DNA of 64,000 bases from a candidate division WOR-3 bacterium (lineage in GTDB: Bacteria > Hydrothermota > Tepidihabitantia > B3-TA06), in assembly GCA_016934635.1 (NCBI GenBank), contig JAFGSK010000071.1, positions 1,294 to 65,293 on the forward strand. The letters run 5' to 3'. Of the stretch, positions 1,512 to 59,252 are shown piece by piece. The notes under the pieces were generated by a model that saw only the letters and a program-made list of their open reading frames with translations, was not told where the DNA came from and made no database searches. The position numbers and the translations under genes were made by a program. Numbering within the stretch: the stretch's first letter is position 1; each line of letters starts with the position of its first letter.

Positions 1512-2870
1512 ATGGTAAGAGCTATGGCTGACGACAATATCAAGGATCTTGAGAAAAGACTGACAGGGCTTGATTTAGAGTCTGGAGAAAACACTACAGC
1601 CTGTGAAAAAGTGAAGGTGCTAAATGAATTGGCTTACGCCCTTTATCGTAGTGATCCCGAGAAGGCTGAAAGCTATTGCGGTCAAGGTCTTAGCTTGGCT
1701 GAGAGTCTCGGATACGAGAAAGGATGTGCGGAGAGTCAACTTATTTTGGGAATTACGTACTGGGTAAGAGGCGATTACAGCAAGGCCCTTGAATTTTATA
1801 CCGAATCTTTAAAAATTTGCGAAAAGATTGATGATAAAAAATGCGCTGCTAGTTGTTACAGTAACATTGGACTAGTTCACAAAAGTAGGGGGGATTATGA
1901 TAGGGCTTTGGAGTTCCATTATAAAGCCCTGAAAGCCAAGGAAGAAATTGATGATAAGTCGGGTATCGCGAAATGTTACAACAATATCGGGATTATTTAC
2001 GACGAGCGAAACGACTACGGTCAGGCTTTGGAATACTATATCAAGGCTTTAAATATCTTTACCGAGATAGATGATAAACAAGGAGTCGCATTTTCTTATA
2101 ACAATATTGGAATTATCTTTGAGACACGGAAGGAGTACGATCAGGCTCTTGCCTATTACCTGAAGTCTTTACGCATCAAGGAGGATATCGGAGATAAAAA
2201 CGGGATCGCAGATTCGTACGCCAACATCGGTGATATATACAGTGAGCGAGGAGATGAAAATCATGCGTTGAAGTATTATTTAAAAGCCCTGACGATATTT
2301 GAAGAGATAGACAACAAAAGGGAGATCGCCGATGTGAATAATAATATCGGATACGTATATACCTTGTTAGGGAAATACGATTCGGCTCTTACTTATCTAC
2401 TAAAGGGTTTACAAATAGCTGAGGAAATAGGAGTGAAACAGTTGGAAATAAGTAGCTGTAAGCACCTTTCTGGGTTATACGAAGCTCAGGCAGATTTCCA
2501 ACAAGCCCTTGCTTTCTTTAGGCGATACAGTGAACTTAAGGAGAAGGTTTTCAGTGAGGAGAGCGCCGAAAAGGTTGCTCAGATACAGGTGAAATATGAG
2601 ACTGAAAAGAATGAGTGGAAGGCTGAGATCTATCGTTTAAGGAACGTGGAACTCGAAGCCGAAATAGCCGAACGTAAAGAGACTGAAGATGCGTTACGCA
2701 GTAGTGTGTGTGATCTTAGCCGCTTTAATCATTTAGCGGTTAAACGGGAGCTGAGAATGATTGAACTTAAACACGAGGTCAACGAATTGCTGCGTTCTAA
2801 GGGCCTTGAGGAAAAATATAAAACCCCTATTCCTGAAGATATCGAAAGTGAAAAAGAGAATAAAAAATGA
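1512..2870 (+). CDS. Tetratricopeptide-repeat protein with C-terminal coiled coil
   Basis: About eight tandem ~40-aa TPR units (e.g. ALEFYTESLKICEKIDDKKCAASCYSNIG / ALEFHYKALKAKEEIDDKSGIAKCYNNIG). C-terminal heptad-rich segment. Stop overlaps the next start (ATGA). Confidence 0.8.
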   Translation: MVRAMADDNIKDLEKRLTGLDLESGENTTACEKVKVLNELAYALYRSDPEKAESYCGQGLSLAESLGYEKGCAESQLILGITYWVRGDYSKALEFYTESLKICEKIDDKKCAASCYSNIGLVHKSRGDYDRALEFHYKALKAKEEIDDKSGIAKCYNNIGIIYDERNDYGQALEYYIKALNIFTEIDDKQGVAFSYNNIGIIFETRKEYDQALAYYLKSLRIKEDIGDKNGIADSYANIGDIYSERGDENHALKYYLKALTIFEEIDNKREIADVNNNIGYVYTLLGKYDSALTYLLKGLQIAEEIGVKQLEISSCKHLSGLYEAQADFQQALAFFRRYSELKEKVFSEESAEKVAQIQVKYETEKNEWKAEIYRLRNVELEAEIAERKETEDALRSSVCDLSRFNHLAVKRELRMIELKHEVNELLRSKGLEEKYKTPIPEDIESEKENKK

Positions 2871-3247
2871 GATGGAACGAAAAAGAAATCTTGATAGGTA
2901 AGAATAAAATGCAAATTATAGAAGGTAACATAGTTCACATTACAGCGATTGGAGATATTGATGAAGAACTTACTAAAGAAATAATGAAACTCTATGAGGA
3001 GTTGATGGAAAGAATGGAGCAAGTAAAGATGCTTTTTGATCTCAATAGAGCGGGTAAGGTTTCACCACAGGCAAGAAAATTATTTACGGAATTGGCTAGG
3101 GATAAAAGGATTCTGAAGGTTGCTTCATTCGGCTTGCATCCTGTGGCAAGGGTAATTGCGACCTTCGGTATGGGTTCAGTGTACGGAAAAGGATTCGCAC
3201 GGTTCTTTAAAACCGAGGAGGAGGCGGTTGCATGGCTGAAAGAGTGA
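2867..3247 (+). CDS. STAS/SpoIIAA-like (DUF3478-type) small protein
   Basis: 126 aa. Pattern I.EGNIVHITAIGDID...LFDL...KVSPQARKLF...KVASFGLHP...FFKTEEEAVAWL is typical of SpoIIAA-like proteins encoded next to sensor kinases. Translationally coupled to the upstream TPR gene. Confidence 0.45.
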   Translation: MRWNEKEILIGKNKMQIIEGNIVHITAIGDIDEELTKEIMKLYEELMERMEQVKMLFDLNRAGKVSPQARKLFTELARDKRILKVASFGLHPVARVIATFGMGSVYGKGFARFFKTEEEAVAWLKE

Positions 3248-3273
3248 TCACAAAGGATTGATAAGATCGAAAG

Positions 3274-4743
3274 ATGGATGAGAAAGAACGTATATCTGAG
3301 ATGATTGATACTATCAGGAAGCTGGCACAGGGGGATTATTCTGCACAGGTTAAGCTTACTGGCAAGAACGATGAACTTGATGCTTTGGGTATGGGTTTGA
3401 ATATGATGATTGACGATATTAGATGCAATACCAAGGAGTTGAATGAAGCTCACCGCGCCTCACTTAATATTATGGAGGATTTAGAAAGGGAGAGGAAGGA
3501 ATTACGCGCTTTAACGCAACAACTTCAAGCCGAAATAACCGAGCGTAAACTGGCCGAAAAAAAAGAGAAAGAGTATATAAAAAATCTCAAGTTTTTATAC
3601 GATGCCGCCCTGGAGTTTGTTGAACTGGTACCTTTCAAGGCGCTATTCAAATACATTGGGGAAAAACTTTACCAGTTAATAGGATCGGTCATGGTAATAA
3701 CAGTTTCCTATGACGAAGATACCGGAAAATTTACAGCGCGGAGTGTTTCAGGGGCGAGTAGTAAAACCGAGGTTGTACTTAAATTCTTTAGCAAAAATCC
3801 GGTAGACCTAGAGTTTACAATACCACCTGTGGCTCAAGCTCAGCTGCATAGGGGTAAATTACAGAAGGTTCCGAACATTCTTGAAAAGGTCACCGATGTC
3901 AAAATTTCTGCGGAAATGGAAGCGGAACTGAAAAAAGATGTCGGTCTTGGAAACGTATATACAATGGGCCTTGCAAGAGGAGAAAGTCTGTTCGGATTTG
4001 TAATTGTGTTCATGCATGAAGGTGTCGAATTGATTAATAAAAGTGTTGTGGAGACATTTATCAATCAAGCGTCAATTGCACTGCAACGCGGCAAGATTGA
4101 GAAAGAACTAACCGCATCTCTTACAGAAAAGGAATTGCTTTTAAAGGAGATTCACCACCGGGTAAAAAATAACCTGCAAGTAATATCTTCCCTATTAAAC
4201 CTTCAAGCAAGATACGTAAATGATGAAGTGATGTTGAAGGTTTTTGCAAACAGTCAGAGCCGGATTGATTCTATGGCCCTTATTCACGAAAGGCTGTATA
4301 AATCCAAAGACCTGGCAAGGGTGAATTTTGAAGGTTACTTAAAGAGCCTTGTCCGTTCGCTATTTGAGTCCCACAATATCAGTTCCAGTAATGTTTCGTT
4401 AAAGTTGGATGTAAGTGGTGTTTCGTTGAGTATTGACAAAGCCATTCCTTTGGGGTTGATTATAAATGAATTGATAAGTAACTCGTTTGAGCACGGATTT
4501 CCTGAAGGCAGGAAAGGTGAGATAAGGATCTATTTAAGGAAGGCGGAAGATCGGGTTATGCTGACCGTTGCCGATAACGGCGTTGGTTTTCCTGAGGATC
4601 ATGATTTGAAATCGACGGATTCGTTCGGATTACGATTGATCAATATGCTGGTAGACCAGTTGAAGGGGAAGATAGAGCTTTGCAAGACCGATGGATCGAA
4701 ATTTAATATATCCTTCTCAGCTAGTAATAAGGATAACGACTAA
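3274..4743 (+). CDS. Cytoplasmic sensor histidine kinase, HisKA_2/HWE-type (HAMP-like segment, coiled coil, sensor module, HisKA_2, HATPase_c)
   Basis: [22 protein letters not shown]-box typical of HisKA_2. HATPase_c with DNGVGFP and GLRLI motifs. No TM segments. Confidence 0.85.
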
Positions 4744-7700
4744 TGTCAACTACTAAGATACTTATCGTTGAAGACGAAAAAATCGTCGCTATTGATCTCA
4801 GGGATCAACTCGAAGCTTTAAGTTATAAGGTTATCGGCATCGTCTCTTCCGGGGAGGAGGCCATAATAAAAGCGAGCCAGATACATCCTGATATTGTTAT
4901 TATGGATATTAAACTGGAGGGTCAGATGGACGGTATCGATGCCGCAGAAAAGATGCGCAACGAACTTGACATTCCAGTAGTATATCTTACTGCATACGCT
5001 GACGAGATTATCTTGGAGCGAGCCAAGGCTACGGAACCGTTCGGTTACATCCTTAAGCCATTTAAGCAGAGGACTCTCCAGGTGGCTATTGAGACCGCTC
5101 TGTACAAGCATAAGACAGAGCAGAGGTTAAAGGCAAGCGAGGAAAGTTTCAGGCAGATAGCTGAGAATATTCGGGAGGTTTTCTGGCTTACTGATTGGAC
5201 TGAAAACAAGGTCCTTTATGTGAGTCCTGCGTACGAGGAGGTTTGGGGACATTCATGCGAGAGTCTTATTGAGAAGCCAGGGAGTTGGGCTGAGGATATC
5301 CATCCTTCCGATCGTGATCGTGTATTTGAAGCTTTCAGAACCCTGGCGCCTATTGGACGCTACGATGAAACCTACCGGATCATCAGGTCAGACGGAAGCG
5401 TGCGCTGGATCCACGACAGGGCGTTTCCCATTCACGATAGGAACGGTAATGTGTGGCGCGTTGCCGGAATATCAGAAGATATTACCAAAGAAAAAGAAGC
5501 GGAGGAAATACTACGAAGGGCGCGTGATGAACTTGAGGCGCGTGTCAAGGATCGTACTGCGGAACTGCGAGAAGAAGTACTGGAACGCAAGCGTGCCGAG
5601 GAGGAGGTGAAGCGGCGGGCCGAGAATCTCGAAGCTGTCAACCAGTTGGTAATTGAATTATCCTCTGCCCCGTCAAATGTGGATTTACTGGAATTGATTA
5701 ACAGGAAGCTAAGGGAGATTACCGGGGCATTGGCTACCGGAATCACCGTCTACGATCCTGAAAGCCAGGAACTTGTCCTGAAACATCTTGCCGCACCTGG
5801 TGAGATTCTCCAGAAAGCGGCGAAGATCATAGATAAAAAGCTCGCTGGTATGCGTTTCCCGGTATCCGGGGATTTCCTTGAACGGATGAAGAGAGAGGTT
5901 GTAGCATCATTTGAGGATCCCTCCGAGCTTTCGCTGGGACAAATACCCAAACCTGTTGCCAGGACCATACAACACACATTCGGGATAGGCGAGGTAACCG
6001 GCTTCGCTCTGCATTACGACGGAAAGGTGGTTGGCGCTGCAGGGATTTTTATGCCTCAGGGAAAGCCGCCTTTGTCAAAAGATCTCCTGCATATCTTTGC
6101 GAACGTGGTTTCGGTTACGCTGCAGCGTAAGCGTGCCGAGGAGGAAGTTAAGCTCAGGGCCGAGTATTCCAATGCCGTAAATGAGTTTGCGATCGAGTTG
6201 GCAGCCGCTTCTTCGGATGTGAACCTTTACGAATTGATTGGCGAGAAGTTAAAGAAGATCACGGCTGCGTTGTCTACCGTTGTTACATCCTATGATAGCC
6301 AAACCGGTGAACTATCCATAAGGTATCTAGGGGTTCCAGAGGACGACCTGCTGCAGATTAATAGGCTTCTCAAGCGTCGGGCAGAAGGGATGCGGTTCCA
6401 GGTTGATGAGAAGATGTTTGAGAAGATGATTACCGAAGTGGTAGCCACGTTCACAGACCTTTCGGAGTTGACCTTCGGTGAGATCCCGAAGCCTGTTGCT
6501 TCCGTTATCCAGAAAACGTTTGGTGTGGGTGAGATAGCGGGATTTGTCTTACATCACAGGGGTGATATTATGGGTTCGGCAGCGATATTTATGCCCAAGG
6601 ATTCCCGTGGGCTGCCTCGCAATGAAATGCACATTATTGCGAATCTCTGTGCGTTAGCCCTGCGGCGAAAACAGGTTGAGGAAAAAGAACACATTCACAT
6701 CCGTAACCTGTCATTCCTGTCAAAGAGTGCAACGGAATTCGTGGCTCTTGTTGAAGATGCGGATGTTTTCGGCTACATCGCAGAACGACTCACCGAACTC
6801 GTGGAAGGCGGAATTGTGGTTTTGGTTTCGTACGATGAACACACTGATAAGTTTAGGGGTGAAAAGGTTCTTGGCTTAGGGGAAAAAACAGAGCAAGTAC
6901 TCAAGATCTTTGGGAAAACCTTAGTCGGAATATCCACTCAAGTAAGCGCTGAGACCAAATCGCGTCTACTCAGCGGTGAGTTGAAGGAATTTCCAGAAAC
7001 CCTTTATGAGATAACAGCAGGTGGGATTCCAGAGGGGGTAAGCAAGGCGCTTGAGAAGGTCATTAGTCCTGGCGCTAAATACTCGATGGGTTTTGTTCAG
7101 CAGGATAGATTGTTAGGTGCGGCTATTGTCGTATTACGCAATGCACTCAAGCTGCGAAACCCGGATACCGTAGAGGCGTTTATTAACCAGGCATCGGTTG
7201 CCTTGCAGCGTAAGAATGCCGAACAAGCGCTGCGTCAATCCGAAGAGCGGTTTCGACGCTTTGCCGGTACCGTCACTGACATGATTTACCGGTACGACAC
7301 CAGACGCTCCGATTACGATTTTATCTCGCCTTCCTGCGAATTGCTGACCGGATACAGTGTTGGAGCCTTCAGGTCTGATCCTGAACACTTCTGGGAAAGT
7401 CTTATCCATCCTGATGATTTTAAAAGGGTGCGAGAGGAAAGAAGACATCAGCTGAGTCAAGAGTCAGGTACATCGTTCAATCTCGATTTCCGCATAATTA
7501 GAAAAGACCGCAGGATGATCTTTGTTAACGAACGTGGGGATTTTGAGGTTGACTTAAATGGACGGATTACGAGCTTTAACGGGGTGGTTCGTGATATAAC
7601 CGAGCAAAAAGTTGCAGAGCAGCAGCTCAAGCGGAGGGCGGAAACAAGCACCGTTCTTGCCGCCCTGACCACTGAACTTTACAGCGCCGAATCCGTTCAG

Positions 7701-10121
7701 GAGGTCCTGGATGTAACAATAAAGCATCTTTCCCAGGTATTCGGCTTCTTTGTCAGTGTTAATTTGATAGACAAGAAAGGAACCAGACCAGTCCTCGCTC
7801 TTAAGGCCTATCATGTTGAATCCAGGATTCTCGGACTAGCTGAAAAATTACTCGGGAGAAGGATACTCGACTGGCCGATTCCACTCTACGAAGACACCGT
7901 AATATCGAGGACAATGCGAACCGGACACCCGACGGTTATTGGTCTGGACTTTGTTCCGGATGAGCCGGTTGTAGAAACCAGTATCAAGAGTATGCTGGAG
8001 TCAATGATTGAAGCTCACAGCCCGTTACTTCCAATAGCCAGGAAAATAGCCGAGCAGGCGGGGGACAAATCGCTGTTGGGGATCCCTTTTTCCAACGCCT
8101 CGGGTGAAATAATCGGTTCTTTAACGGTGGTGGCTGATTTCCGGTTCACCAGGGATGACTACAACCTTGTCAAGGTGACTTCGGATATCATCGGTCGAGC
8201 CATCGGACAGCTGATGCTGACCGAGGAATTGCAGGAATCGGAGGAACGCTACCGGAGCTTGCAGGCCAACGTTCCTGTTGGAATCTTCAGAACGACCCCG
8301 GAGGGGGATTTGCTTTCAGCTAATCCTGCGATGCTCAGGATGCTGGGTTATGCCTCGAAGGAGGAGTTCAAACCGGTACCGTTGGAAGATGTGTATGTTA
8401 ATCCCGAACAACGGGAGGAATTTGCAAAGCTAATGGAACAGGAGGATTCGGTAACAGGTTTTGAGGTTCAGCTTAGGCATAAGGACGGTTCGACTTTCTG
8501 GGCATCAATGAATGCTACTGCTATCAAAGACGAGAAGGGAAAGATACTTTACTTCGATGGAATCCTGGAAGATATTACCGAACGCAAGCAAGCTGAGGAT
8601 TCTCTTATGCGAGAACGCCAGGCTTTTTCCATCATTGCAGAAGCTGCGATTCACGCTAAAGGGATTCAGGATCTTTGTTATCGCGTTTTGTCTGGCCTGG
8701 TCAAGACTTTGGATTTCGATGTGGGCACTGTTCAACTGTACGATCCTGTCGATCGAACACTTACCCTGAAAGCGATGTCAGGGACTTGGGGTGACAAGAT
8801 ATACGATTACGATCCTCCACAGCATATAGACGATCCTGAATACGTGGGTGCAGTCGTAGCAAGGTCTCGTAATCCTATCTTTGCTCCTGACGTGACACAA
8901 CATCAGATCTATGATACCCATAAACAGAGGCTTGAGGAGAATCATATTCGAGCGCTCATTACATGGCCGATTCTAGGATCGAACGATGAACTCTTAGGGA
9001 TTATGCACCTTATGGATGAGAACACGAGGGAGATTCCTGAAAAAGATCGCGTTTTTTTCGAGACAGTAACAGATATGTTTGCCACTGTCCTTGAACGAAA
9101 GCAGGCTGAAGAGGAGTTGAGGATAAAAGACATTGCAATCCAAAGTTCTATTAGTGGTATTGCGCTTATGGATATTGACGGTAAACTTACCTATGTCAAC
9201 GATTCATGTCTTGCGATGTGGGGATATGAGGATACAAAAGAGGTTTTAGGTAAGCCTGGTGGAAAGTATTATAAAAATAAGCGAGATGTGGTTAAGATAA
9301 TGAAGTCTTTAAGGGATGAAGGTAGCTGGATAGGAGAAGCCGAAGGCTTGAGAAAAGACGGGGTAAGCTTTCCCGTCCATCTGGCCATAAGTCTTGTGAA
9401 GAATGAAACCGGTAAGCCTTTGTTTACGATGGCTTCGTTCGTTGATGTTACAGAACGTAGGCAAGCCGAAGATCGGATTAAGGCGGCTCTTAAAGAAAAA
9501 GAGGTTCTTCTCAAAGAGATTCACCACAGGGTGAAGAATAACTTGCAGGTAATCTCATCCCTACTAAATTTACAGGCAGAGCATATTACAGACGAAGAAA
9601 CATTAAAAGTTTTCACGGAGAGTCAGAGTAGGGTTCGCTCAATCGGCCTGATTCACGAAAAGCTGTATCAATCCCCTGATTTGGCTCACATCAATCTTGC
9701 CGAATACATCCGGGGTCTTGGTGATTATTTGTTAAGTATCTATAGGGTTAATACCAGTTTTGTCAGACTCAACATGGAAATGGATGACATATTAATCGAG
9801 TTGGATAAGGCGATCCCGTGTGCATTAATAGTTAACGAGTTCGTCTCCAATGCTCTGAAGTACGCCTTTCCACATACAAGGAAAGGTATGGTTCGTATCA
9901 GGTTGCACAGAGATGAGGATGACGTAGTTATGGTCGTTTCAGATAATGGTGTAGGTATGCCTCCTGATGTAGATTTTCGTAAGACAGAATCGTTGGGGTT
10001 GCAACTGGTTGGGATATTGGTCGATCAACTTGAAGGCAGCGTTGAGCTTGAACGGAAAGAAGGAACGATATTTACGGTAAGATTCCCCTTGGGAAATTCA
10101 GGGAGAAAGGCAGATGTCTAA
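4743..10121 (+). CDS. Giant multi-sensor hybrid histidine kinase: N-terminal REC, multiple PAS and GAF-like modules, C-terminal HisKA_2 + HATPase_c
   Basis: REC with D and K (IVIMDIKL, ILKPF). PAS modules (e.g. 5130-5500, 7240-7610, 8221-8600, 9110-9470). GAF-like modules. C-terminal [21 protein letters not shown] plus DNGVGMP/GLQLV ATPase motifs. Start overlaps the upstream stop (TAATG). Confidence 0.85.
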   Translation: MSTTKILIVEDEKIVAIDLRDQLEALSYKVIGIVSSGEEAIIKASQIHPDIVIMDIKLEGQMDGIDAAEKMRNELDIPVVYLTAYADEIILERAKATEPFGYILKPFKQRTLQVAIETALYKHKTEQRLKASEESFRQIAENIREVFWLTDWTENKVLYVSPAYEEVWGHSCESLIEKPGSWAEDIHPSDRDRVFEAFRTLAPIGRYDETYRIIRSDGSVRWIHDRAFPIHDRNGNVWRVAGISEDITKEKEAEEILRRARDELEARVKDRTAELREEVLERKRAEEEVKRRAENLEAVNQLVIELSSAPSNVDLLELINRKLREITGALATGITVYDPESQELVLKHLAAPGEILQKAAKIIDKKLAGMRFPVSGDFLERMKREVVASFEDPSELSLGQIPKPVARTIQHTFGIGEVTGFALHYDGKVVGAAGIFMPQGKPPLSKDLLHIFANVVSVTLQRKRAEEEVKLRAEYSNAVNEFAIELAAASSDVNLYELIGEKLKKITAALSTVVTSYDSQTGELSIRYLGVPEDDLLQINRLLKRRAEGMRFQVDEKMFEKMITEVVATFTDLSELTFGEIPKPVASVIQKTFGVGEIAGFVLHHRGDIMGSAAIFMPKDSRGLPRNEMHIIANLCALALRRKQVEEKEHIHIRNLSFLSKSATEFVALVEDADVFGYIAERLTELVEGGIVVLVSYDEHTDKFRGEKVLGLGEKTEQVLKIFGKTLVGISTQVSAETKSRLLSGELKEFPETLYEITAGGIPEGVSKALEKVISPGAKYSMGFVQQDRLLGAAIVVLRNALKLRNPDTVEAFINQASVALQRKNAEQALRQSEERFRRFAGTVTDMIYRYDTRRSDYDFISPSCELLTGYSVGAFRSDPEHFWESLIHPDDFKRVREERRHQLSQESGTSFNLDFRIIRKDRRMIFVNERGDFEVDLNGRITSFNGVVRDITEQKVAEQQLKRRAETSTVLAALTTELYSAESVQEVLDVTIKHLSQVFGFFVSVNLIDKKGTRPVLALKAYHVESRILGLAEKLLGRRILDWPIPLYEDTVISRTMRTGHPTVIGLDFVPDEPVVETSIKSMLESMIEAHSPLLPIARKIAEQAGDKSLLGIPFSNASGEIIGSLTVVADFRFTRDDYNLVKVTSDIIGRAIGQLMLTEELQESEERYRSLQANVPVGIFRTTPEGDLLSANPAMLRMLGYASKEEFKPVPLEDVYVNPEQREEFAKLMEQEDSVTGFEVQLRHKDGSTFWASMNATAIKDEKGKILYFDGILEDITERKQAEDSLMRERQAFSIIAEAAIHAKGIQDLCYRVLSGLVKTLDFDVGTVQLYDPVDRTLTLKAMSGTWGDKIYDYDPPQHIDDPEYVGAVVARSRNPIFAPDVTQHQIYDTHKQRLEENHIRALITWPILGSNDELLGIMHLMDENTREIPEKDRVFFETVTDMFATVLERKQAEEELRIKDIAIQSSISGIALMDIDGKLTYVNDSCLAMWGYEDTKEVLGKPGGKYYKNKRDVVKIMKSLRDEGSWIGEAEGLRKDGVSFPVHLAISLVKNETGKPLFTMASFVDVTERRQAEDRIKAALKEKEVLLKEIHHRVKNNLQVISSLLNLQAEHITDEETLKVFTESQSRVRSIGLIHEKLYQSPDLAHINLAEYIRGLGDYLLSIYRVNTSFVRLNMEMDDILIELDKAIPCALIVNEFVSNALKYAFPHTRKGMVRIRLHRDEDDVVMVVSDNGVGMPPDVDFRKTESLGLQLVGILVDQLEGSVELERKEGTIFTVRFPLGNSGRKADV

Positions 10122-13100
10122 AGCCAGCATTCTTGTTGTAGAAGATATCTCGGTGACCGCGCTGGATATAAAAAATCGGTTGTTGGAGTACGGATATTCA
10201 GTATGTGGGGTGGTGACTTCCGGAGAGGAAGCTTTGCTGGAAACTGAAAGATTAAGGCCTGATCTGGTACTTATGGATATTATATTACAAGGTAAAATAG
10301 ACGGGGTCGAGGCAGCAGAGAAGATTAAGGAGGAATTAAATATACCTGTTGTTTATCTCACGGCGCACATGGATAATGCCACCCTGGATAGAGCAAGACT
10401 AACCGAGCCGTTTGGTTATATCGTTAAACCATTTGAGACCAGGGAGATGGTTTCTACTTTGGAACTGGCGCTTTATAGACATAAGATTGAGCGGGCATTA
10501 AAGGAATCTGAGGAGCGTTACCGAAGCCTCCATTCCAACGTCCCGGTAGGCGTATTTCGTTCCACACCTTCGGGGGAGGTTCTTTCAGCTAATCCGGCCA
10601 TGGTAAGGATGATGGGCTATGATTCGGAAGATGAATACAAAACCGTCTCGATTCCTGACTTGTATCTTTATCCGCAGCAACGTGATAGGTTTGTCAAAAG
10701 GTTGAAAGATGATGGTGCGATTACTGAGTTTGAGGTTCAGCTTAGAAGAAAGAACCAGACCGTTTTCTGGGCGTCCCTGACCGCAAAGGCTGTTTCCGAT
10801 AACGAGGGAAAGATAGTACATTACGACGGTATCCTGGAAGACATTTCCGAACGCAAACAACGTGAGTTGCGTGGACAGATCAGGACTCAGCTTCTAGACA
10901 AGCTGCGAGGGGCAGAAACAATCCAGGGGTGTTTGCAGTTAGGTTGCGAGGCGGTACGAGACGCGGGTTTGTTCAAACGTGCGGTATTTACAACAAAGAA
11001 CGAGAAGGGCGAGACAACCAACGCCGGCTATGTTGGTGTGGATCGACAGATCGTTGAGGAGTTGAGGAAAAAACCGCCTGCAACACGTGAGATGTATGCC
11101 CGGATGTTGAAAGAAGATTTCAAGATAAGCCATTCCTACTTTTTACCGGTAGAGGCGGGTTTGGATATCTCCCAGACCGGTAGGTACGTTCTTCAAGACG
11201 TCTCCTCAGGGGAAGGCCCAGATGCATGGCAGCGGGGAGACGAGTTGCTTGTTCCCATGTTTTCCATGAGTGGTTTAGTGGAAAGCTGGCTCTCTGTGGA
11301 TACGCCCGTGGATGGGAAAAGACCTGACGAAGCAACAATTAATTACCTGGAGGATATCGTAGACATCGTCGCTCGTCAGATCAGAGAGATTAAAAACATC
11401 ACTGCGTTGCGAGAATCCGAAGAACGATACCGGAGTTTAACAGAAAGAGCCAGTGCCGGGGTATATATTTTCGGGCCTCAGGACCGATTTATTTTTGCAA
11501 ATCCCGCAATGGAAAAAATTACCGGTTATTCGCGTAAAGAACTGATTCATATGAATCCTTGGGACATAGTAGTTCCAGAAGACAAAGAAGGCGTACTGAA
11601 AGATCGAAGCCAGGCAAGAGTCAAAGGGGAGGAACTTGAGAGTTCTTATCGGATGCGGGTTATACGAAAGAATGGGGAGGAGGCAACACTCGAGATAAAA
11701 GCTACCCCGATTACGTATGAAGGAAAGCCTGCTCAGCTCGGACACTGTATCGATATAACAGAGAGTATCAAGAACGAGAAAAAGATCGAACATCTCAATT
11801 CTGTTCTCAGAGCCATACGGAATGTCAACCAATTGATCAGTCACGAGAGAGTGCCGGAGAAATTACTCGAAGGGATTTGCAGCAAGCTCGTAGAGACTCG
11901 TAGCTTCTACAGCGCTTGGGTCGTTCTTGTGGATGATTCCGGCAAAGTGGCGTTCATTGCCGAAGCGGGACTCAAGGACAAATTTGCGCCGATTTTAAAG
12001 CCGCTCAAACAAGGAAGACTTACGGATTGCGGTCTCAAGGCCCTGGAATGTGATGATATAATAGTAATCGATGATCCGGCAAACCTATGTCGAGATTGCC
12101 ATATTCTATCCGGAGAGATTGAATCGGGCATGATGTATACCAGATTGAAGTATGCAGAAAAGATCTTCGGTGTATTAGCCGTATCCTTATCTTCCGAACT
12201 CAGCCGTGAAACCGAGGAACAGGAGTTGTTCTGTGAAGTAGGAGGAGATATCGCGTTTGCACTGTACAGCATCGAGGCAGATGAGAAACGCAGGCAGGCG
12301 GAAGAGGCGCTGGAAAGGGAACACCGCGCTTTCAAGATAATCGCCGAAGCTTCAGTCCAGGCAAAGGATATTGCTGATTTATGTAAAAGGGTACTTGAAG
12401 GATTAGTAAAAGCTTTAGTTTTTGACGTGGGAACCTTCAGATTGTACGATGCGGATCACAAATTACTCAAGTTGTGGGCTTCTTTTGGCTTGAGTGAAGA
12501 AGAGATAAAGGATGCATCTGGGGCTCAACCGTTGAACGATCCCCGTTACGTTGCAGCTTTAACGGCACGCACTTCAGAACCAATAATCGCTCCTGATATC
12601 TACAGGACAGAAAGACTGCAACCCTTTATATCTAGACTAGAAAAATTCGAAGAGCGCTCCCTTATTTCCTGGCCTATCCTTGACGGACGGCAAGGCTTGC
12701 TCGGTGTATTACAACTCTGGTCCAAGAAAGAAGTAGATATCTCTGAAGGTGATAGGACATTTTTTGAAAGAGTGGCCGGGATGTTTGCCACTGTTTTGGA
12801 ACGCAAACGTACAGAGGAGGAACTTGATCGTCAGCACCAAAAAATAGAAGCATTGTTTGATAATGTCGATGTGCTGCTCTGGTCTATGCGAGAAGGAGAA
12901 GATGGGGAACTCTATTACGAACAGGTCAATTCTGCTTTTGCAGCTGTTGAAGGTTACTCCCCTGATTATTATAATGAGAAGACCATCTCTGAATTACATC
13001 CTCGTGAACAATGCAATGGTATCATGAATACTTATGCCTGGGTTAAGAATGACGGGATGCACGTTAATGATGTTCATTATAAGGGTAGACACTTTGTTAT

Positions 13101-15927
13101 GCGGTTCTTTCCCTTAAAAGATTTTGACGGCAGGATACGTGGATTCATCGGTTCAGGTATCGATATAACCGACCGTAAACGTGCCGAAGAAGGTATTAAA
13201 TCCCGTCTATTCTATGAAGAGAGTGTATCACACTGCTCTCAAATATTGGTAGAGATGGTGGATTTGGGTGAAGCACTTCAGCAGGTGACAGACGAGATGC
13301 TTTCGGTAGGAAAGGCCAGTCGTGCTTTTATATTCAAAAATCTTGACGGTCCGCAGGATGTTATATTCAGTCGTCTGATTAACGAGGCCGTTGCCGATGG
13401 TGTAGAGCCTCAGATTACGGATACCAGGTTTCAACACCTTGTTTTGCAAGAGGCGTCACAGGAGCTTTTCCAGAAACTTTCTTCCGGAAGACCTTATGGA
13501 GGATCTGTTAAGGAATTACCTTCAGAGGATAGAACGGCTCTTTTTTCACCTGAAACCCGTTCTGTTTTAATACTACCGATTCTTATAGAAGATAAATTCT
13601 GGGGATTTATTGGTTTTGAGGATCAGGTGAAAGAACGCAAGTGGACCCAGGAAGATATTCAACTCTTACGTACCCTAGGATCGCTGATTGGCTCTACGAT
13701 AGAAAGAAGGCGAGCAGAGGAGGGGTTACGTGAATCAGAGGAACGCTATCGGGCGTTTACCGAGGAAGCCCTGGTCGGCGTTTATATTTATCGTGAAAGA
13801 CGATTCCTTTTCGTAAACCGGGCCATGGAAGAAATCACCGGGTACTCCCGTGAAGAACTCCTCGCTATGGATACCGGGAAGCTGGTAATTGCCGAAGATC
13901 AAGCTATGTTAACGGCCAGATCCGAGGCGAGGGAAAGAGGCGAGGAGGTTCCTTCACAGTACAGTATGAGAATTGAAAGGAAGAACGGCCAGATAGCCGT
14001 TCTTGAGGTAAGAACCCGCCAGATAGTTTTTGCCGGACAAAAGGCTTATCTGGGCAACTGCGTGGATATTACCGAGATTCGGAGGGTCCAGGAGGCGTTA
14101 GAGAAATCAGAGGAGCGTTATCGGGTACTTACAGAGGAAGCTATGGTCGGTATTTATCTGACCGTGGGCAAGAATTTCGTTTTTCTTAATCCTGCGATGG
14201 AGAAGATAACCGGCTATACTCGTAATGAATTACTCAAGATAGATATGCATTCCATAGTTGTTTCGGAAGATGTAGAGATGATAACCGAAAGAAAAAAACA
14301 GCGAAAACCCGGACAGCCGGATCAATACACAATGCGCATAAAACGAAAGACCGGAGAGATTGCTACGTTGGAAGTCAGGGTTCGTCCTATTCCTTATCAG
14401 GATAAAGCGGCTTTCCTAGGTAACTGTGTTGACATTACCGAGATAATAAATAATAGGAAACAGATAGAACAGGCGAAAAGGGCCTGGGAGAGTACGTTTG
14501 ATTCTATCTCTGATCTCGTGATGATCCTGGATACTGAATATCGCATTATCCGGGCTAATCGTGCCGTAAAGGAGTATACCGGTATCGATTTCAACGATCT
14601 TTTAGGAAGAAATTATCTGGACGTATACAATTTGAACGAAGAAGATAAAGGCATGAAAGAAATACTAGGCAGAAAAGCCAAGCTTCCCGAACACTTCGAG
14701 ATCAAAGACTCGGTACGGGGCAGGATGTTTTCGGTATCGGTTTCTCCGTTGATCGATCCAGTAGGTGAGATAATAGCCACGGTTCACGTAGCGCGTGACA
14801 TCAGCGATATGCGGATGATGGAAGAGGCCTTGGCAGAATCTGAGGCGCAATTCAGGGGTTTGGCGGAGAGTGCAATGGATATTATATTCAGCGTGGAACT
14901 CGACGGAATGATCAGCTACGTCAATCCCAGCGTTGAGGAGATCCTGGGTGTCAATCCGGCGGTATTCATAGGAAGTAACCTCGGGAGTATGAAGGACTCG
15001 AGGCTTTTTACGGCTGAGGTTCGTAAAGTACTTAGCCGAAATCTTTCCTCAAATCTTGAAGAAAAAGATATACCGTTTTTCGAGATAGAGACCGAAGACG
15101 TGAAAGGGCGCAAGCATGTCATAGAGGTGTCTGCACGTAGATTATTTCATCGTATAGTAGGTATCGCACGCGACGTTACAGAACGGAATCTTATGCAACA
15201 GCAGTTGATCAAGGCTTCCAAACTGGCCTCGATCGGAGTCCTCGCTGCTGGGATAGCTCATCAGGTCAATAATCCGCTTGCTATACTTCTCGTACACTCT
15301 ACACTTCTTCGAACTATCTTTACAGATAGGGAGGAAATACCGTTGGAAGTAAAAGAAGAGGTATCAGAATATCTCGATACGATGGAGGAGCAGGTAGAAC
15401 GAACTCGTCGGGTAGTTTCAGGTCTTTTGGAGTTTACTCAACCTGAACGATCCGAACCGAAGCCTACTGACGTTAATCCAATCGTAAATCAAGCTGCAAA
15501 GTGGCTTTCTCAACGTTACTCTCTGGAGGAGTTGACGCTTGAGCTTTTTCTGGATAAAGCCTTGCCCCGAGCATTTCTCGATAAGGTAGCGTTGGAGCAG
15601 GTAATTATGAACGTTATCGAAAATGCATACGATGCCATGGAAGGCTCAGGCAAACTCTCAATCGAGACCATGCTTGTAAATCAGAGTACGGTTAGTATCC
15701 GGATCAGCGATACCGGCCCAGGTGTTCCTTCCGAGATTCGAGATGAGATTTTTGAACCTCTTTATACAACAAAGTCCGGCAAAAAGGGAACAGGATTAGG
15801 CTTGTCTCTTGCCTCAATGCTTTTAGAGCGTTTCGGAGGACGTATTTATCTTGCAGACACCAAAAACGAAGGTGCGAGTTTTGTAATAGAAGTTCCAGTA
15901 TACCAGGATAAGGTTGATGAATCTTAA
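10114..15927 (+). CDS. Giant multi-sensor hybrid histidine kinase: N-terminal REC, multiple PAS/GAF modules, classic HisKA + HATPase_c
   Basis: REC (LVLMDIILQ, IVKPF). At least six PAS-like and three GAF-like modules. H-box IAHQVNNPLAIL (HisKA). HATPase_c with DTGPGVP and GTGLGLSL. Start overlaps the upstream stop by 8 nt (ATGTCTAA). Confidence 0.85.
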   Translation: MSKASILVVEDISVTALDIKNRLLEYGYSVCGVVTSGEEALLETERLRPDLVLMDIILQGKIDGVEAAEKIKEELNIPVVYLTAHMDNATLDRARLTEPFGYIVKPFETREMVSTLELALYRHKIERALKESEERYRSLHSNVPVGVFRSTPSGEVLSANPAMVRMMGYDSEDEYKTVSIPDLYLYPQQRDRFVKRLKDDGAITEFEVQLRRKNQTVFWASLTAKAVSDNEGKIVHYDGILEDISERKQRELRGQIRTQLLDKLRGAETIQGCLQLGCEAVRDAGLFKRAVFTTKNEKGETTNAGYVGVDRQIVEELRKKPPATREMYARMLKEDFKISHSYFLPVEAGLDISQTGRYVLQDVSSGEGPDAWQRGDELLVPMFSMSGLVESWLSVDTPVDGKRPDEATINYLEDIVDIVARQIREIKNITALRESEERYRSLTERASAGVYIFGPQDRFIFANPAMEKITGYSRKELIHMNPWDIVVPEDKEGVLKDRSQARVKGEELESSYRMRVIRKNGEEATLEIKATPITYEGKPAQLGHCIDITESIKNEKKIEHLNSVLRAIRNVNQLISHERVPEKLLEGICSKLVETRSFYSAWVVLVDDSGKVAFIAEAGLKDKFAPILKPLKQGRLTDCGLKALECDDIIVIDDPANLCRDCHILSGEIESGMMYTRLKYAEKIFGVLAVSLSSELSRETEEQELFCEVGGDIAFALYSIEADEKRRQAEEALEREHRAFKIIAEASVQAKDIADLCKRVLEGLVKALVFDVGTFRLYDADHKLLKLWASFGLSEEEIKDASGAQPLNDPRYVAALTARTSEPIIAPDIYRTERLQPFISRLEKFEERSLISWPILDGRQGLLGVLQLWSKKEVDISEGDRTFFERVAGMFATVLERKRTEEELDRQHQKIEALFDNVDVLLWSMREGEDGELYYEQVNSAFAAVEGYSPDYYNEKTISELHPREQCNGIMNTYAWVKNDGMHVNDVHYKGRHFVMRFFPLKDFDGRIRGFIGSGIDITDRKRAEEGIKSRLFYEESVSHCSQILVEMVDLGEALQQVTDEMLSVGKASRAFIFKNLDGPQDVIFSRLINEAVADGVEPQITDTRFQHLVLQEASQELFQKLSSGRPYGGSVKELPSEDRTALFSPETRSVLILPILIEDKFWGFIGFEDQVKERKWTQEDIQLLRTLGSLIGSTIERRRAEEGLRESEERYRAFTEEALVGVYIYRERRFLFVNRAMEEITGYSREELLAMDTGKLVIAEDQAMLTARSEARERGEEVPSQYSMRIERKNGQIAVLEVRTRQIVFAGQKAYLGNCVDITEIRRVQEALEKSEERYRVLTEEAMVGIYLTVGKNFVFLNPAMEKITGYTRNELLKIDMHSIVVSEDVEMITERKKQRKPGQPDQYTMRIKRKTGEIATLEVRVRPIPYQDKAAFLGNCVDITEIINNRKQIEQAKRAWESTFDSISDLVMILDTEYRIIRANRAVKEYTGIDFNDLLGRNYLDVYNLNEEDKGMKEILGRKAKLPEHFEIKDSVRGRMFSVSVSPLIDPVGEIIATVHVARDISDMRMMEEALAESEAQFRGLAESAMDIIFSVELDGMISYVNPSVEEILGVNPAVFIGSNLGSMKDSRLFTAEVRKVLSRNLSSNLEEKDIPFFEIETEDVKGRKHVIEVSARRLFHRIVGIARDVTERNLMQQQLIKASKLASIGVLAAGIAHQVNNPLAILLVHSTLLRTIFTDREEIPLEVKEEVSEYLDTMEEQVERTRRVVSGLLEFTQPERSEPKPTDVNPIVNQAAKWLSQRYSLEELTLELFLDKALPRAFLDKVALEQVIMNVIENAYDAMEGSGKLSIETMLVNQSTVSIRISDTGPGVPSEIRDEIFEPLYTTKSGKKGTGLGLSLASMLLERFGGRIYLADTKNEGASFVIEVPVYQDKVDES

Positions 15928-15988
15928 CCCCGATTTAGATGTGAAAGGTTGGATCTTATGAGAGTTATCCTTCGGGGAATAGAAAGGA

Positions 15989-16729
15989 GTGGAGATGATG
16001 GCTAAGGCACGTATTCTTTTTGTTGATGATGAGCGCACGTTCGCTGACGCTATGTCCCAGTTACTTCGTATTAACGGTTATGAAGTTCAAGCAGCCTATT
16101 CCGGAAAACTTGCCATGGAGATATTCCAACCCGGGGAGTTTGACCTGGTGATTACCGACTTAAGCATGCCTACCATGGATGGAATTGAGTTGGTCCGTCA
16201 GATTAGAAAACTTAATTCCTATCAGAGGATTATTGTTGTTACAGGGTTTCCCTCCCAGCGTTCACAAGAACAGGCTTATAAGTTGGGTACATTGAATTAT
16301 ATAGCCAAGCCCTTTAAGCCTCAGCGGTTTCTTGAATTGGTTAACGATGCCCTGCGAGGTCAGGAGGAGGGTTTGCTTGGCGCTATAAAGCTTTCTCCTT
16401 CAGATCTTGTGCAGCTTTACAGCTATATGGGAAAGACAATTGTACTTGAAATACTTAAAGGCAAGAACGGAGAGGCGGGTCGAATATACTTCAGTAAAGG
16501 CCAGGTAGTTCACGCAGAAACCGAGCAACTTAAAGGCAAGGAAGCGTTTTACGAGATTCAAACGTGGTTTTCAGGTATATTTAAGACAGAGAAACCGCAG
16601 CCAGAATTTCCTCATACGATTGATGAGGATGTGGACGTGTTGCTTCTGGAAGCGGCACGCAGGCAGGATGAACAACCTTGGCCTGTTGTTAAAAGAGAGG
16701 AGTGTGAAGATAATGAAGACTCCGGTTGA
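15989..16729 (+). CDS. Response regulator: REC domain fused to DUF4388 (PATAN-like) domain
   Basis: REC motifs (ILFVDDE, LVITDLSMP, YIAKPF). C-terminal LSPSDLVQLYSYMGKTIVLEIL...GRIYFSKGQVVHAE...GKEAFYEIQTWFSGIF matches the DUF4388 consensus. Confidence 0.7.
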   Translation: MEMMAKARILFVDDERTFADAMSQLLRINGYEVQAAYSGKLAMEIFQPGEFDLVITDLSMPTMDGIELVRQIRKLNSYQRIIVVTGFPSQRSQEQAYKLGTLNYIAKPFKPQRFLELVNDALRGQEEGLLGAIKLSPSDLVQLYSYMGKTIVLEILKGKNGEAGRIYFSKGQVVHAETEQLKGKEAFYEIQTWFSGIFKTEKPQPEFPHTIDEDVDVLLLEAARRQDEQPWPVVKREECEDNEDSG

Positions 16730-16761
16730 TTGTAACTCCGGAGCTTGAAAGGTAATCTATT

Positions 16762-17664
16762 ATGAATGAGCGGGCAAGGATCCTTTTTGTAGACGATGAG
16801 CGTAAATTTGCCGATGCAATGGCAAAGGTGCTACGATACGGGGATTTTAACGTACAGACTGCGTATTCGGGAAGCCAGGCTCTTGATTTTTATCAAAGCG
16901 AAAGCTTTGACCTGGTTATCACTGATCTCAAGATGCCGGTAATGGACGGTATTGAATTGATTCGTCGAATAAAACAGATCAATCAAGATCAGTTAATACT
17001 GGTTATCACCGCATTTCCCACCCAGTGTATGCCATGGAACAGAAGGTTCTCAGAATCAGGCGCGCCAGAGCTGGATCTGGAAACGGTCAACTATCTGGTT
17101 AAGCCTTTTACACCCAAGCGTTTGATAGAGGTTGTTGAGAAAACCTTTCGTGAAAAAGATGTGGCTTTGGGCCGGAAGGTTTCAGTTGCCGAATCTGCAG
17201 ACGAAACACTCACTTCGGAAGAAGAGATGTTTTCCCATGAACCTGTAGCAGGGAAAACCAGCCAGAAAGTGGTGAAACCGACATCCGGAAACTTTATATC
17301 CAATGCTGCATTAGAGATTCTTGAAGAGTCCTCCGGGGCCGTGGGTGCACCGGCTGTATGTGCCCTGGTTGGTTTTGACGGGGTAACCATAGCTGAGGTG
17401 AATACCAGCGGTATGGGTAAGGATGCCTATTCAGGAAAGTTCGCAGACGCCATGAAGCTCTTACGGAAAACACTTGCCGAGGTTGGAAGCGGACATCTGA
17501 ACGAGGGGACACTCAAACTGGATAAACACTGGATTCTCGTCCGGTTCCTGGATCGAGCGAATTGTTACCTTTGTATAGTTGCTCTGCTCGGTGTTCCGAT
17601 CGGAACCCTGAGAACGGTTGCCAAAAAGACGGTTGAAGGGCTGAGCTCGGTCCTGGAGATGTAA
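16762..17664 (+). CDS. Response regulator: REC domain fused to Roadblock/LC7 (MglB-like) domain
   Basis: REC is a paralog of the preceding gene (ARILFVDDERKFADAMAKVL). C-terminal ALEILEESSGAVGAPAVCALVGFDGVTIAEV...CYLCIVALLGVPIGTLRTVAKKTVEGL fits the Roadblock/LC7 fold pattern. Confidence 0.6.
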   Translation: MNERARILFVDDERKFADAMAKVLRYGDFNVQTAYSGSQALDFYQSESFDLVITDLKMPVMDGIELIRRIKQINQDQLILVITAFPTQCMPWNRRFSESGAPELDLETVNYLVKPFTPKRLIEVVEKTFREKDVALGRKVSVAESADETLTSEEEMFSHEPVAGKTSQKVVKPTSGNFISNAALEILEESSGAVGAPAVCALVGFDGVTIAEVNTSGMGKDAYSGKFADAMKLLRKTLAEVGSGHLNEGTLKLDKHWILVRFLDRANCYLCIVALLGVPIGTLRTVAKKTVEGLSSVLEM

Positions 17665-19300: not shown

Positions 19301-19499
19301 TCAGCGGTTAGTTCTCCATCCTTGACATCACCGATCCTGTGACTATTATTATCCTCAATGTACGGCAATAAGGCGGTTGCATTCGCTACTGAACCAGGGG
19401 ATGCCTCCAGAAAAGACTCCAGACATGAATCGGACGCAGGTTTTTTTCGGGTTAACGGTCTATATAATGAGAAAGAAATTCCTTCGATCGGAGGTTTTA

Positions 19500-58968: not shown

Positions 58969-59252
58969 AAAAAAATTTCGGCCGTGCGACACCTTCGTTC
59001 AGGTCCGCGAGGGCTGTCAGAACAAACAGGCTCCAACCAGGCACTCTCGGCACCGTAATCACGTCCGTGTACCGTTGCTTCCTTCCGGACCTGGCGGGGT
59101 TGGCGGTGTGCTGCGAGCCAAGACCCAATCTTCATTGCTTGCTTCCTCTTGCAGTGATCCTCACTTTCCTGATCTCACGGTGTCCTTCAGCCTCGCGTAT
59201 GGCGGGTTTCGAGTCCAGGAGACCGCCAACCTCCCGCTTAGCACGGCCGACA
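58969..59252 (-). ncRNA. ffs: Signal recognition particle RNA, long (Bacillus-type, Alu-domain-containing) form
   Basis: The minus strand reads 5'-GUCGGCCGUGCUAAGCGGGAGGUUGGCGGU... (an Alu-domain 5' end like B. subtilis scRNA). It contains the invariant helix-8 motif CCAGGUCCGGAAGGAAGCA (plus-strand GCTTCCTTCCGGACCTGG at about 59077-59094). The 3' segment GCACGGCCGA pairs with the 5' end, followed by a U7 terminator. Conserved position immediately upstream of dnaX. Confidence 0.85.

Follow-up and report, generated by a model that had tools for sequence, protein, structure and literature searches.

K1, a cytoplasmic hybrid multi-sensor histidine kinase of 1792 aa from a candidate division WOR-3 bacterium, carries three consecutive cassettes (A, B and C), each made of a linker helix and a predicted GAF-fold domain. 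The explanation we prefer is that A and B arose by in-frame tandem duplication and that the three cassettes signal along a helical spine; we give this explanation as a whole a probability of roughly 0.6. The modules are members of a large family of predicted GAF domains, divergent in sequence, which standard domain libraries miss.

Cassette organisation of K1 and K0

The window (the whole stretch of DNA analysed, 64,000 nucleotides) contains K1 and, directly upstream, the kinase K0, whose stop codon overlaps the K1 start. Their features, in window coordinates, are:

3274..4743, + strand: K0, a 489-aa kinase with a partial HAMP, one C-type module, HisKA_2 and HATPase_c
3541..4080, + strand: K0 module (K0 aa 90-269), C/K0 subtype, Glu at family column 127
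4743..10121, + strand: K1
5580..6119, + strand: module A (aa 280-459), linker helix and predicted GAF-fold domain, A/B subtype, Ala at family column 127
6120..6659, + strand: module B (aa 460-639), a paralogue of A of equal length, without indels
6660..7202, + strand: module C (aa 640-820), C/K0 subtype, Ser at column 127, where 60% of the subtype has Cys
7596..8216, + strand: region D (K1 aa 952-1158), a more ordinary GAF (Pfam GAF, E 5.9e-6)

K1 (NCBI MBN2380673.1) is labelled 'PAS domain S-box protein' in the database. From the N- to the C-terminus it consists of REC, PAS, A-B-C, PAS, weak GAF, PAS, GAF_2, PAS, HisKA_2 and HATPase_c, and the linker motif is present at nine of its domain boundaries. 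Its Pfam-positive GAFs are region D, the first half of which matches the module profile weakly (i-E 8.5e-4), and aa 1307-1451.

Judged from their alignment, A and B are homologous, collinear modules of equal length. Each is exactly 180 aa long, beginning with LERKRAEEEV (aa 280, nt 5580) in A and LQRKRAEEEV (aa 460, nt 6120) in B, a spacing of exactly 540 nt; A ends at aa 459 and B begins at aa 460, so the two are directly adjacent and in frame. In BLASTP, 87 of 179 residues are identical (48.6%, 70% positives, 0 gaps, E 3e-63). C is 22% identical to A (E 1.7e-10) and 25% identical to B (E 2.2e-10); its identity to the K0 module is higher, 39% across 179 aa (E 2.5e-38). Against an HMM trained exclusively on modules from other proteins, A, B, C and the K0 module reach 191, 175, 204 and 190 bits, respectively (family median 191). 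Both A and B have most probably been kept intact under purifying selection since the duplication.

These alignments bear out most of the preliminary description, in which A and B start nearly identically, stay collinear for about 180 residues and are followed by a third, more distant copy, itself a homologue of the sensor module in the HisKA_2 kinase upstream. Its span for A and B (5581-6663) was right to within 1-4 nt of ours (5580-6659), but the K0 module starts at 3541 when the linker is included, rather than at 3574. By sequence comparison, C is not specifically a copy of the K0 module, because many modules from other organisms match it equally closely (38-42%, against 39% for the K0 module); the nearest relative of the K0 module is P0045 (54%).

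Age of the A/B duplication

At the DNA level, A and B are 55.9% identical without gaps, compared with 31% ± 8% at the other in-frame 540-nt offsets of the gene. The only long exact DNA repeat between them is a 17-mer in the linker, which occurs exactly twice in the window:

5589..5605, + strand: 17-nt exact repeat AAGCGTGCCGAGGAGGA, codons of KRAEEE, with its partner exactly 540 nt downstream
6129..6145, + strand: second copy of the 17-nt exact repeat

The blastn alignment of A and B is limited to the first 160 nt (69%). Identity at codon positions 1, 2 and 3 is 58, 74 and 36%, and synonymous-site identity is 12/20 within the first 60 nt versus 52/160 elsewhere (32.5% outside the linker). We obtained a dN of 0.43, while the NG86 (Nei-Gojobori) dS was undefined through saturation. 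A third-position identity of only 36% and a saturated dS indicate that much neutral time has elapsed and, on this substitution pattern, the A/B duplication is ancient. The nucleotide similarity that had been noted earlier is thus present, but it is weak beyond the 17-mer and consists mostly of conserved linker codons. Tandem Repeats Finder did not detect the 540-nt repeat, because it is too diverged and lies above the maximum period.

Duplication in place or cassette shuffling

Module-level duplication within the gene, as originally claimed, stands insofar as A and B are homologous and adjacent; that they were duplicated within K1 itself we infer as the most parsimonious reading only, since the bootstrap for A and B as sisters in the neighbour-joining tree is 11%. 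Both modules resemble the lone module that a K2-like kinase carries in other WOR-3 assemblies (57-60% each) more than they resemble one another. This nearest relative of both (L001p/P0010) sits on a scaffold that is K2-like rather than K1-like (identity to K2 is 54% in the C-terminal 624 aa and 51% across K2 residues 112-560), so the giant kinases are mosaics whose cassettes do move between paralogues. Quartet counts for AB/LO, AL/BO and BL/AO are similar across nine outgroups, favouring no topology, and the site patterns comprise 14 positions where A equals B but not L001, 31 where A equals L001 but not B, and 32 where B equals L001 but not A. Among 199 modules, A and B rank 4th and 3rd in each other's hits. 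Scans of genomes and metagenomes for K1 orthologues yielded none carrying one to three modules; what they did return was the L001/P0010 type with its single module. At the B/C junction two different family subtypes meet, and B and C rank only 142nd and 184th among each other's hits, so this pair is not a recent duplication.

These data leave room for a different history, in which A and B originated in two separate paralogues of the kinase gene and in-frame recombination at the conserved linker motif brought them together, making them homologous without any duplication inside K1. We regard this as plausible but on balance unlikely. It would fit the presence of one A/B-type module on the otherwise K2-like scaffold of L001p/P0010, the 58.5% identity between a K1 PAS cassette (aa 1163-1285) and aa 129-251 of K2, the 46% identity between the K0 and K1 transmitters, and the trichotomy of A, B and L001, for which neither neighbour-joining nor quartet counts favour a branching order. 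Likewise, 6 of the 13 adjacent pairs in the family, including B/C of K1, are distant relatives with a mutual rank beyond 10th. However, A and B share a rare subtype (about 35 of the 199 modules) and are mutual top 3-4 hits, and no donor paralogue with an A/B-type module is found elsewhere within the 64-kb window. In several other members, too, neighbouring modules are each other's best hits or nearly so, evidence that local duplication takes place in this family.

Two further readings differ from ours in the timing or the very nature of the similarity. If A and B had duplicated in tandem only recently and then diverged very fast under positive selection, with the L001 module evolving slowly, this would account for their exactly equal, indel-free lengths and for the greater similarity of each to the L001 module than to the other. 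A rough calculation from the pairwise identities agrees with this reading, giving long branches of about 25% for A and for B and a short one of about 16% for L001. We nevertheless consider it very improbable given the third-position identity and saturated dS described above; moreover, the 180-aa length is a family-wide constant and hence no sign of recency. That the resemblance is a coiled-coil or low-complexity artefact of the repeated RKRAEEE linkers, rather than domain homology, is almost certainly wrong. It is true that the charged linker contains the peptide most obviously shared and the one long stretch of identical DNA, but the alignment runs ungapped over 179 aa with its E of 3e-63 adjusted for composition, includes the beta-sheet core (GMRF, IPKPVA, FG(I/V)GE), and both modules match an independent family HMM from end to end. 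The full-length alignment and the independent HMM match also rule out chance.

Under the tandem-duplication reading, unequal recombination within conserved linker-coding sequence would have produced the in-frame copy in an ancestral WOR-3 kinase gene. This event would date from about the time when the other sampled WOR-3 lineages split off, or from earlier, and C would be an older module of a different subtype placed beside A/B. Module duplication itself is true and of a known kind, being the ordinary route by which multi-sensor kinases grow.

Fold and domain-library status

The fold of the A, B, C and K0 modules is GAF according to structure prediction. The predicted model has a central antiparallel beta-sheet packed against helices, with the N- and C-terminal helices on one face, and its closest structural counterparts are ligand-binding GAFs. 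The fold had been guessed to be GAF- or PAS-like; similarity to solved GAF domains supports the former, and a PAS fold is rejected. A single continuous helix is predicted across the A/B boundary:

6078..6206, + strand: predicted single continuous helix (residues 167-209 of the A+B model), fusing the last helix of A to the linker helix of B and carrying LQRKRAEEEV

The A+B model is a monomer AF2 model with a pTM of 0.63, and its inter-domain geometry is only indicative.

Sequence libraries do not return this fold. Pfam gave no match for A, B, C or the K0 module even at E<=10, and NCBIfam at the same cutoff gave nothing relevant, so that in both libraries some 540 K1 residues and the K0 sensor domain are blank. 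Neither a single sequence nor a profile of 32 sequences found anything meaningful among PDB sequences; the best match was Cas9 (E 0.099), which we take as chance. Of 32 diverse family members, 3 are touched by PF01590, but none significantly (lowest E 0.0046). Alignment of the family profile by hhalign was insignificant both against the DrBphP GAF (probability 4%) and against the window's own Pfam-positive GAFs (probability 5%), so the GAF homology is without proof at the sequence level and the assignment rests on predicted structure. Matches to PF24820 (Diguanyl_cycl_sensor) occur in 11 of the 69 full-length members and in 0 of 32 isolated modules; this Pfam family hence does not correspond to the module.

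Family distribution and significance

An exhaustive search of representatives, with clusters defined at 50% identity, places at least 3885 representative clusters in the family at E<=1e-3 and 2201 at E<=1e-10. They span bacteria and methanogens, including WOR-3, Zixibacteria, Methanoregulaceae and others. In the 69 members scanned, the accompanying domains were PAS (55), HATPase_c (40), HisKA (25), REC (12) and HisKA_2 (10). The linker consensus of the cassette is TERKxAEE, and the GAF core is conserved across bacteria and archaea (SYD, G-M-x-F-P and I-P motifs; G152 in 93%). The period is strictly 180 aa, and successive modules are joined directly (gap 0) or stand exactly one PAS length (about 126 aa) apart. 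Directly adjacent modules occur in 12 of the 150 best representatives, with gap 0 at 10 junctions; identities within such head-to-tail pairs range from 23 to 77%, the highest being 77% (P0077) and 65% (P0002), and two pairs are reciprocal best hits. At column 127, in the helix corresponding to the phytochrome chromophore site, half of the family has a Cys.

As an under-annotated domain family whose module folds confidently as a phytochrome-like GAF in the predicted models, this group is of modest interest. Its practical value lies in annotation, since a dedicated profile would cover a sensor domain that is common in anaerobic bacteria and methanogens. K1 exemplifies how such kinases grow: cassettes are duplicated and shuffled at the conserved linker helices. 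The half-conserved chromophore-site Cys also provides a testable cofactor hypothesis for the members that bear it. A more far-reaching idea, which we consider speculative and quite unlikely to be correct as it stands, is that the cassette represents an unrecognised, very large branch of phytochrome-related GAFs that ancestrally bound a tetrapyrrole (heme or bilin) via this Cys. The Cys-less A/B subtype would then be derived, having switched to non-covalent binding or another signal, and tandem duplication at the linker would be a routine source of new specificities.

Possible role in signalling

In the proposed mechanism, the last helix of each GAF would continue into the next linker helix, so that the GAFs sit like beads on one helical spine. 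K1 would be expected to form a parallel dimer, in which a ligand or redox change in any GAF passes along the spine to the downstream PAS and GAF domains and on to the HisKA_2/HATPase core. Diverged duplicates would add or split input specificities. Both the dimeric spine signalling and ligand binding by the modules are inferred.

Alternatively, the modules could be no ligand sensors at all but serve passively, as structural spacers or for dimerisation, and so fix how long the helical spine from the REC/PAS inputs to the kinase core is and in what phase it runs. We find this doubtful. The strict 180-aa period and the joins at gap 0 or one PAS length are what spacers would give, and known ligand-binding motifs are missing: the NKFDE motif of cNMP-binding GAFs (regex NK.{3,30}F.{3}DE) occurs in 0 of 199 family modules, and the window copies (A, B, C and K0) have neither a DIP motif nor a Cys at column 127. 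However, conservation across bacteria and archaea extends beyond the helices to the GAF core, the predicted structure is closest to ligand-binding GAFs, and the module pairs of P0019 and P0027 are retained position-specifically, suggesting a distinct role for each copy.

Comparison with known GAF systems

The window copies have neither the residues nor the PAS-GAF-PHY core of a phytochrome chromophore-binding GAF. A search for bilin-attachment residues found no Cys at all in A and only Cys177, in the last helix, in B. The column aligned with His260 of DrBphP holds Ala in A and B, Ser in C and Glu in K0, in an alignment that is itself weak (the 4% probability above). Going by these residues, covalent tetrapyrrole binding by the window copies is unlikely, because the half-conserved Cys of the family is missing there.

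Molitor and colleagues (2013) are reported to have found that the methanogen sensor MsmS binds heme covalently through Cys656 in its second GAF domain. The family also occurs in methanogens (Methanoregulaceae) and has Cys at the chromophore-site helix in half of its members, in contrast to the window copies. MsmS (MA4561) and RdmS are kinases of Methanosarcina acetivorans with multiple PAS/GAF domains. MsmS is a predicted phytochrome-like sensor that carries a c-type heme (PMC8396549), and both MsmS and RdmS lack an H-box (PMC11784639), whereas K1 has a normal HisKA_2 H-box (HHRVKNNLQ).

The tandem GAF-A/GAF-B domains of cyclic-nucleotide phosphodiesterases (PDE2/5/6) and of the adenylyl cyclases CyaB1/2 from cyanobacteria are only 11-14% identical to the modules, and the output of K1 is a HisKA_2 kinase. 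The Pfam GAF families (PF01590 GAF, PF13185 GAF_2 and PF13492 GAF_3) share with our modules the predicted fold and the type of host, namely PAS/GAF multi-sensor kinases, although A, B, C and the K0 module do not reach the Pfam GAF gathering threshold. Pfam searches returned no GAF for the window copies and no PHY (PF00360) for K1 or the 32 modules.

In its two-domain shape, the A+B model resembles the GAF-PHY unit of phytochromes (bacteriophytochromes, Cph1 and plant phy). Unlike PHY, B is a full copy of A without a tongue insertion, and K1 has neither the N-terminal knotted PAS nor the PHY tongue; the modules come from a candidate division WOR-3 bacterium and lie in the order REC-PAS-A-B-C-PAS. 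By analogy, the helical spine proposed for K1 may be likened to those of phytochrome GAF-PHY and phosphodiesterase GAF-A/GAF-B.

Tandem sensor modules in kinase K1

The genes at 1512-17664 make up a signalling operon in which stops and starts overlap, running from a TPR protein through a STAS-like protein and three consecutive kinases (K0, K1 and K2) to two response regulators. Given its N-terminal REC domain and the lack of a predicted membrane anchor, K1 is probably a cytoplasmic hybrid kinase. Pfam finds additional PAS matches in K1 besides those listed here, and assigns no domain to residues 280-820.

1512-2870, TPR protein
2867-3247, STAS/SpoIIAA-like protein
3274-4743, K0 (MBN2380672.1, exact look-up)
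4743-10121 (+), K1, 5379 nt, 1792 aa (MBN2380673.1, 'PAS domain S-box protein', candidate division WOR-3, 112-kb contig; exact look-up)
10114-15927, K2, 1937 aa
15989-16729, response regulator, REC+DUF4388
16762-17664, response regulator, REC protein
K1 aa 6-116, REC (Pfam)
K1 aa 158-243, PAS (Pfam)
K1 aa 640-820 (nt 6660-7202), module C
K1 aa about 1168-1280, PAS (Pfam)
K1 aa 1307-1451, GAF_2 (Pfam)
K1 aa 1592-1667, HisKA_2 (Pfam)
K1 aa 1694-1784, HATPase_c (Pfam)

Elsewhere in the window, a full-length bacterial large SRP RNA (RF01854, 102.6 bits) lies at 58982-59246 (-); no tRNA gene turned up anywhere in the 64 kb. Two further genes point to a diderm bacterium that secretes proteases: 19377-22358 encodes an Omp85-family protein whose N-terminal region is peptidase-MA-like and PD40, and 23849-27691 a C25 (gingipain-type) peptidase of 1280 aa with an FlgD-Ig-like domain at its C-terminus.

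The preliminary description proposed an internal duplication of a sensor module in K1, and at the protein level we could reproduce it. The near-identical opening peptides LERKRAEEEV (aa 280, nt 5580) and LQRKRAEEEV (aa 460, nt 6120) start exactly 540 nt apart, and the modules they open (A, 280-459; B, 460-639) are collinear over about 180 residues, as described (BLASTP: 48.6% identity, 87/179, 70% positives, no gaps, E 3e-63). The more distant third copy, C, shares 22% identity with A (E 1.7e-10) and 25% with B (E 2.2e-10); its proposed homology to the K0 module also held (39% identity, E 2.5e-38). All elements were found, with positions deviating by 1-4 nt.

The nucleotide similarity reported alongside is present too. 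The quoted 17-mer exists, occurring only at 5589 and 6129, but the DNA signal is far weaker than the protein signal: ungapped identity is 55.9% (31 ± 8% at other in-frame 540-nt offsets of the K1 gene), the blastn alignment covers just the first 160 nt, and Tandem Repeats Finder did not detect the repeat. Identity at codon positions 1, 2 and 3 is 58, 74 and 36%, with a Nei-Gojobori dN of 0.43 and dS undefined through saturation.

An AlphaFold2 model of A+B (pLDDT 88.7, input alignment of 13 natural tandem pairs) contains the same secondary structure twice, with A's last helix and B's linker helix predicted as one helix (residues 167-209). K1 carries the linker motif [LIV]-x-[ER]-[RK]-K-x-A-E-E nine times, each at a domain boundary (nt 5580, 6120, 6660, 7203, 7596, 8217, 8574, 9090 and 9447). 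A and B share a larger fraction of synonymous sites within their first 60 nt (12/20) than over the remainder (52/160), which in this small sample is compatible with the linker being a site of recombination or conversion. This motif region may be a hotspot for such events in K1.

A large family of sensor modules

None of A, B, C and the K0 module matched Pfam or NCBIfam, even at E<=10, or any sequence in the PDB. Searching exhaustively with HMMER, using a profile of these four copies and keeping one representative per 50%-identity cluster, gave 3885 representatives at E<=1e-3, 2201 at E<=1e-10 and 281 at E<=1e-30. Members that carry a name belong to WOR-3, Zixibacteria, unclassified bacteria and Methanoregulaceae archaea, and every one is annotated only as 'PAS domain S-box protein' or 'sensor histidine kinase'. 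Among 69 full-length members scanned, we found PAS (55), HATPase_c (40), HisKA (25), REC (12), HisKA_2 (10), HisKA_3 (7), GerE (6) and HD (3), and any Pfam GAF in only 11. Just 3/32 isolated modules touched PF01590 (best E 0.0046). Profile comparison was not significant against either the DrBphP GAF domain (probability 4%; query 100% identical to 5k5b_A residues 150-335) or the window's own Pfam-positive GAFs (5%). With an HMM trained exclusively on modules from other proteins, the four copies score 175-204 bits against a family median of 191, indicating that all are intact members. The cassette family is large and, in its predicted structure, phytochrome-like, and was missed by the Pfam, NCBIfam and PDB sequence searches tested.

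One possible ligand clue is alignment column 127, in the helix preceding the final beta-hairpin, where 50% of 199 modules have a Cys (75/124 of the C subtype, 3/35 of the A/B subtype). In a weak hhalign alignment it matches DrBphP His260; the position directly before that one is where the Cph1/plant type has its bilin-binding Cys. In MsmS, heme is reportedly attached to a Cys in the second GAF domain. Members that bear the Cys may attach a tetrapyrrole covalently at column 127. Covalent binding by the window copies is unlikely: they carry Ala (A, nt 5958-5960; B, nt 6498-6500), Ser (C, about nt 7041-7043) and Glu (K0). The NKFDE motif is absent from all 199 modules and the DIP motif from the window copies.

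Origin and age of the A/B pair

A and B share a minority subtype (Asn at column 21, ~35/199 modules) and rank 4th and 3rd in each other's hits among the 199. However, each is 57-60% identical to the single A/B-type module of K2-like kinases from other WOR-3 assemblies (P0010/L001p), and only 48.6% to the other. Neighbour-joining bootstraps are 11% for A+B, 8% for A+L001 and 9.5% for B+L001, and quartet site patterns with nine outgroups prefer no topology (14 sites where A equals B but not L001; 31 and 32 for the alternatives). Elsewhere, P0010/L001p are K2-like (54% over the C-terminal 624 aa), a divergence about the same as that of their module from A and B, so A and B separated no later than these lineages did.

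These closest relatives, at L001 571-7053 (JAGMDF010000038.1, a WOR-3 MAG) and L003 5974-11535, are K2-like kinases of 1849-2160 aa without a REC domain. Their A/B-type module lies at the extreme N-terminus (aa 20-199), and this kinase type also carries one C-type module (aa 1056-1236). A single A/B-type module on a K2-like scaffold implies that cassettes moved between paralogous giant kinases, which are mosaics of exchanged modules. A PAS cassette of K1 (aa 1163-1285, nt 8229-8597) is 58.5% identical to one in K2 (aa 129-251, nt 10498-10866) and 55% to L001p, and the HisKA_2/HATPase cores of K0 (aa 247-485) and K1 (aa 1545-1785) are 46% identical. Cassette shuffling could also have brought A and B together. 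Scans of genome and metagenome collections yielded no orthologue of K1 in which the modules are arranged A-B-C.

Tandem pairs recur across the family. In the 150 best representatives, successive modules are separated by 0 aa (10 junctions), 4-9 aa (4), ~122-131 aa, or one PAS (24), and ~245 aa (5); spacing is quantised at 0, ~126 or ~245 aa. Adjacent pairs occur in 12 of these proteins at 23%-77% identity: in two pairs the modules are reciprocal best hits, A/B is among several near-best pairs, and B/C is among six distant ones. Together, these spacings, identities and ranks indicate that in-frame tandem duplication is a recurrent process in this family. The pairs in P0019 and P0027 correspond position for position, so some were kept through speciation. 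Much younger duplications also occur, in P0077 (aa 29-398, 77% identity) and as a three-copy array with an exact 180-aa period in P0002 (aa 361-900, 65%). A/B is most parsimoniously explained by in-frame tandem duplication, and the event is ancient.

Possible function and wider context

The GAF and PAS modules of K1 would be strung along continuous helices through which, in the usual parallel dimer, a conformational change in any of them could reach the HisKA_2 dimerisation/histidine-phosphotransfer (DHp) domain. Half of the positions of A and B have diverged, yet both remain intact, a pattern more in keeping with sub- or neo-functionalised inputs than with redundancy; perhaps they instead act as passive spacers. 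The A/B pair is a genuine duplication, of ancient date, of a cassette with a predicted GAF fold within a multi-sensor kinase; neither this type of event nor this type of protein is new. The duplication itself is ordinary; less so is the cassette's family, which is large and goes unrecognised by the libraries searched.
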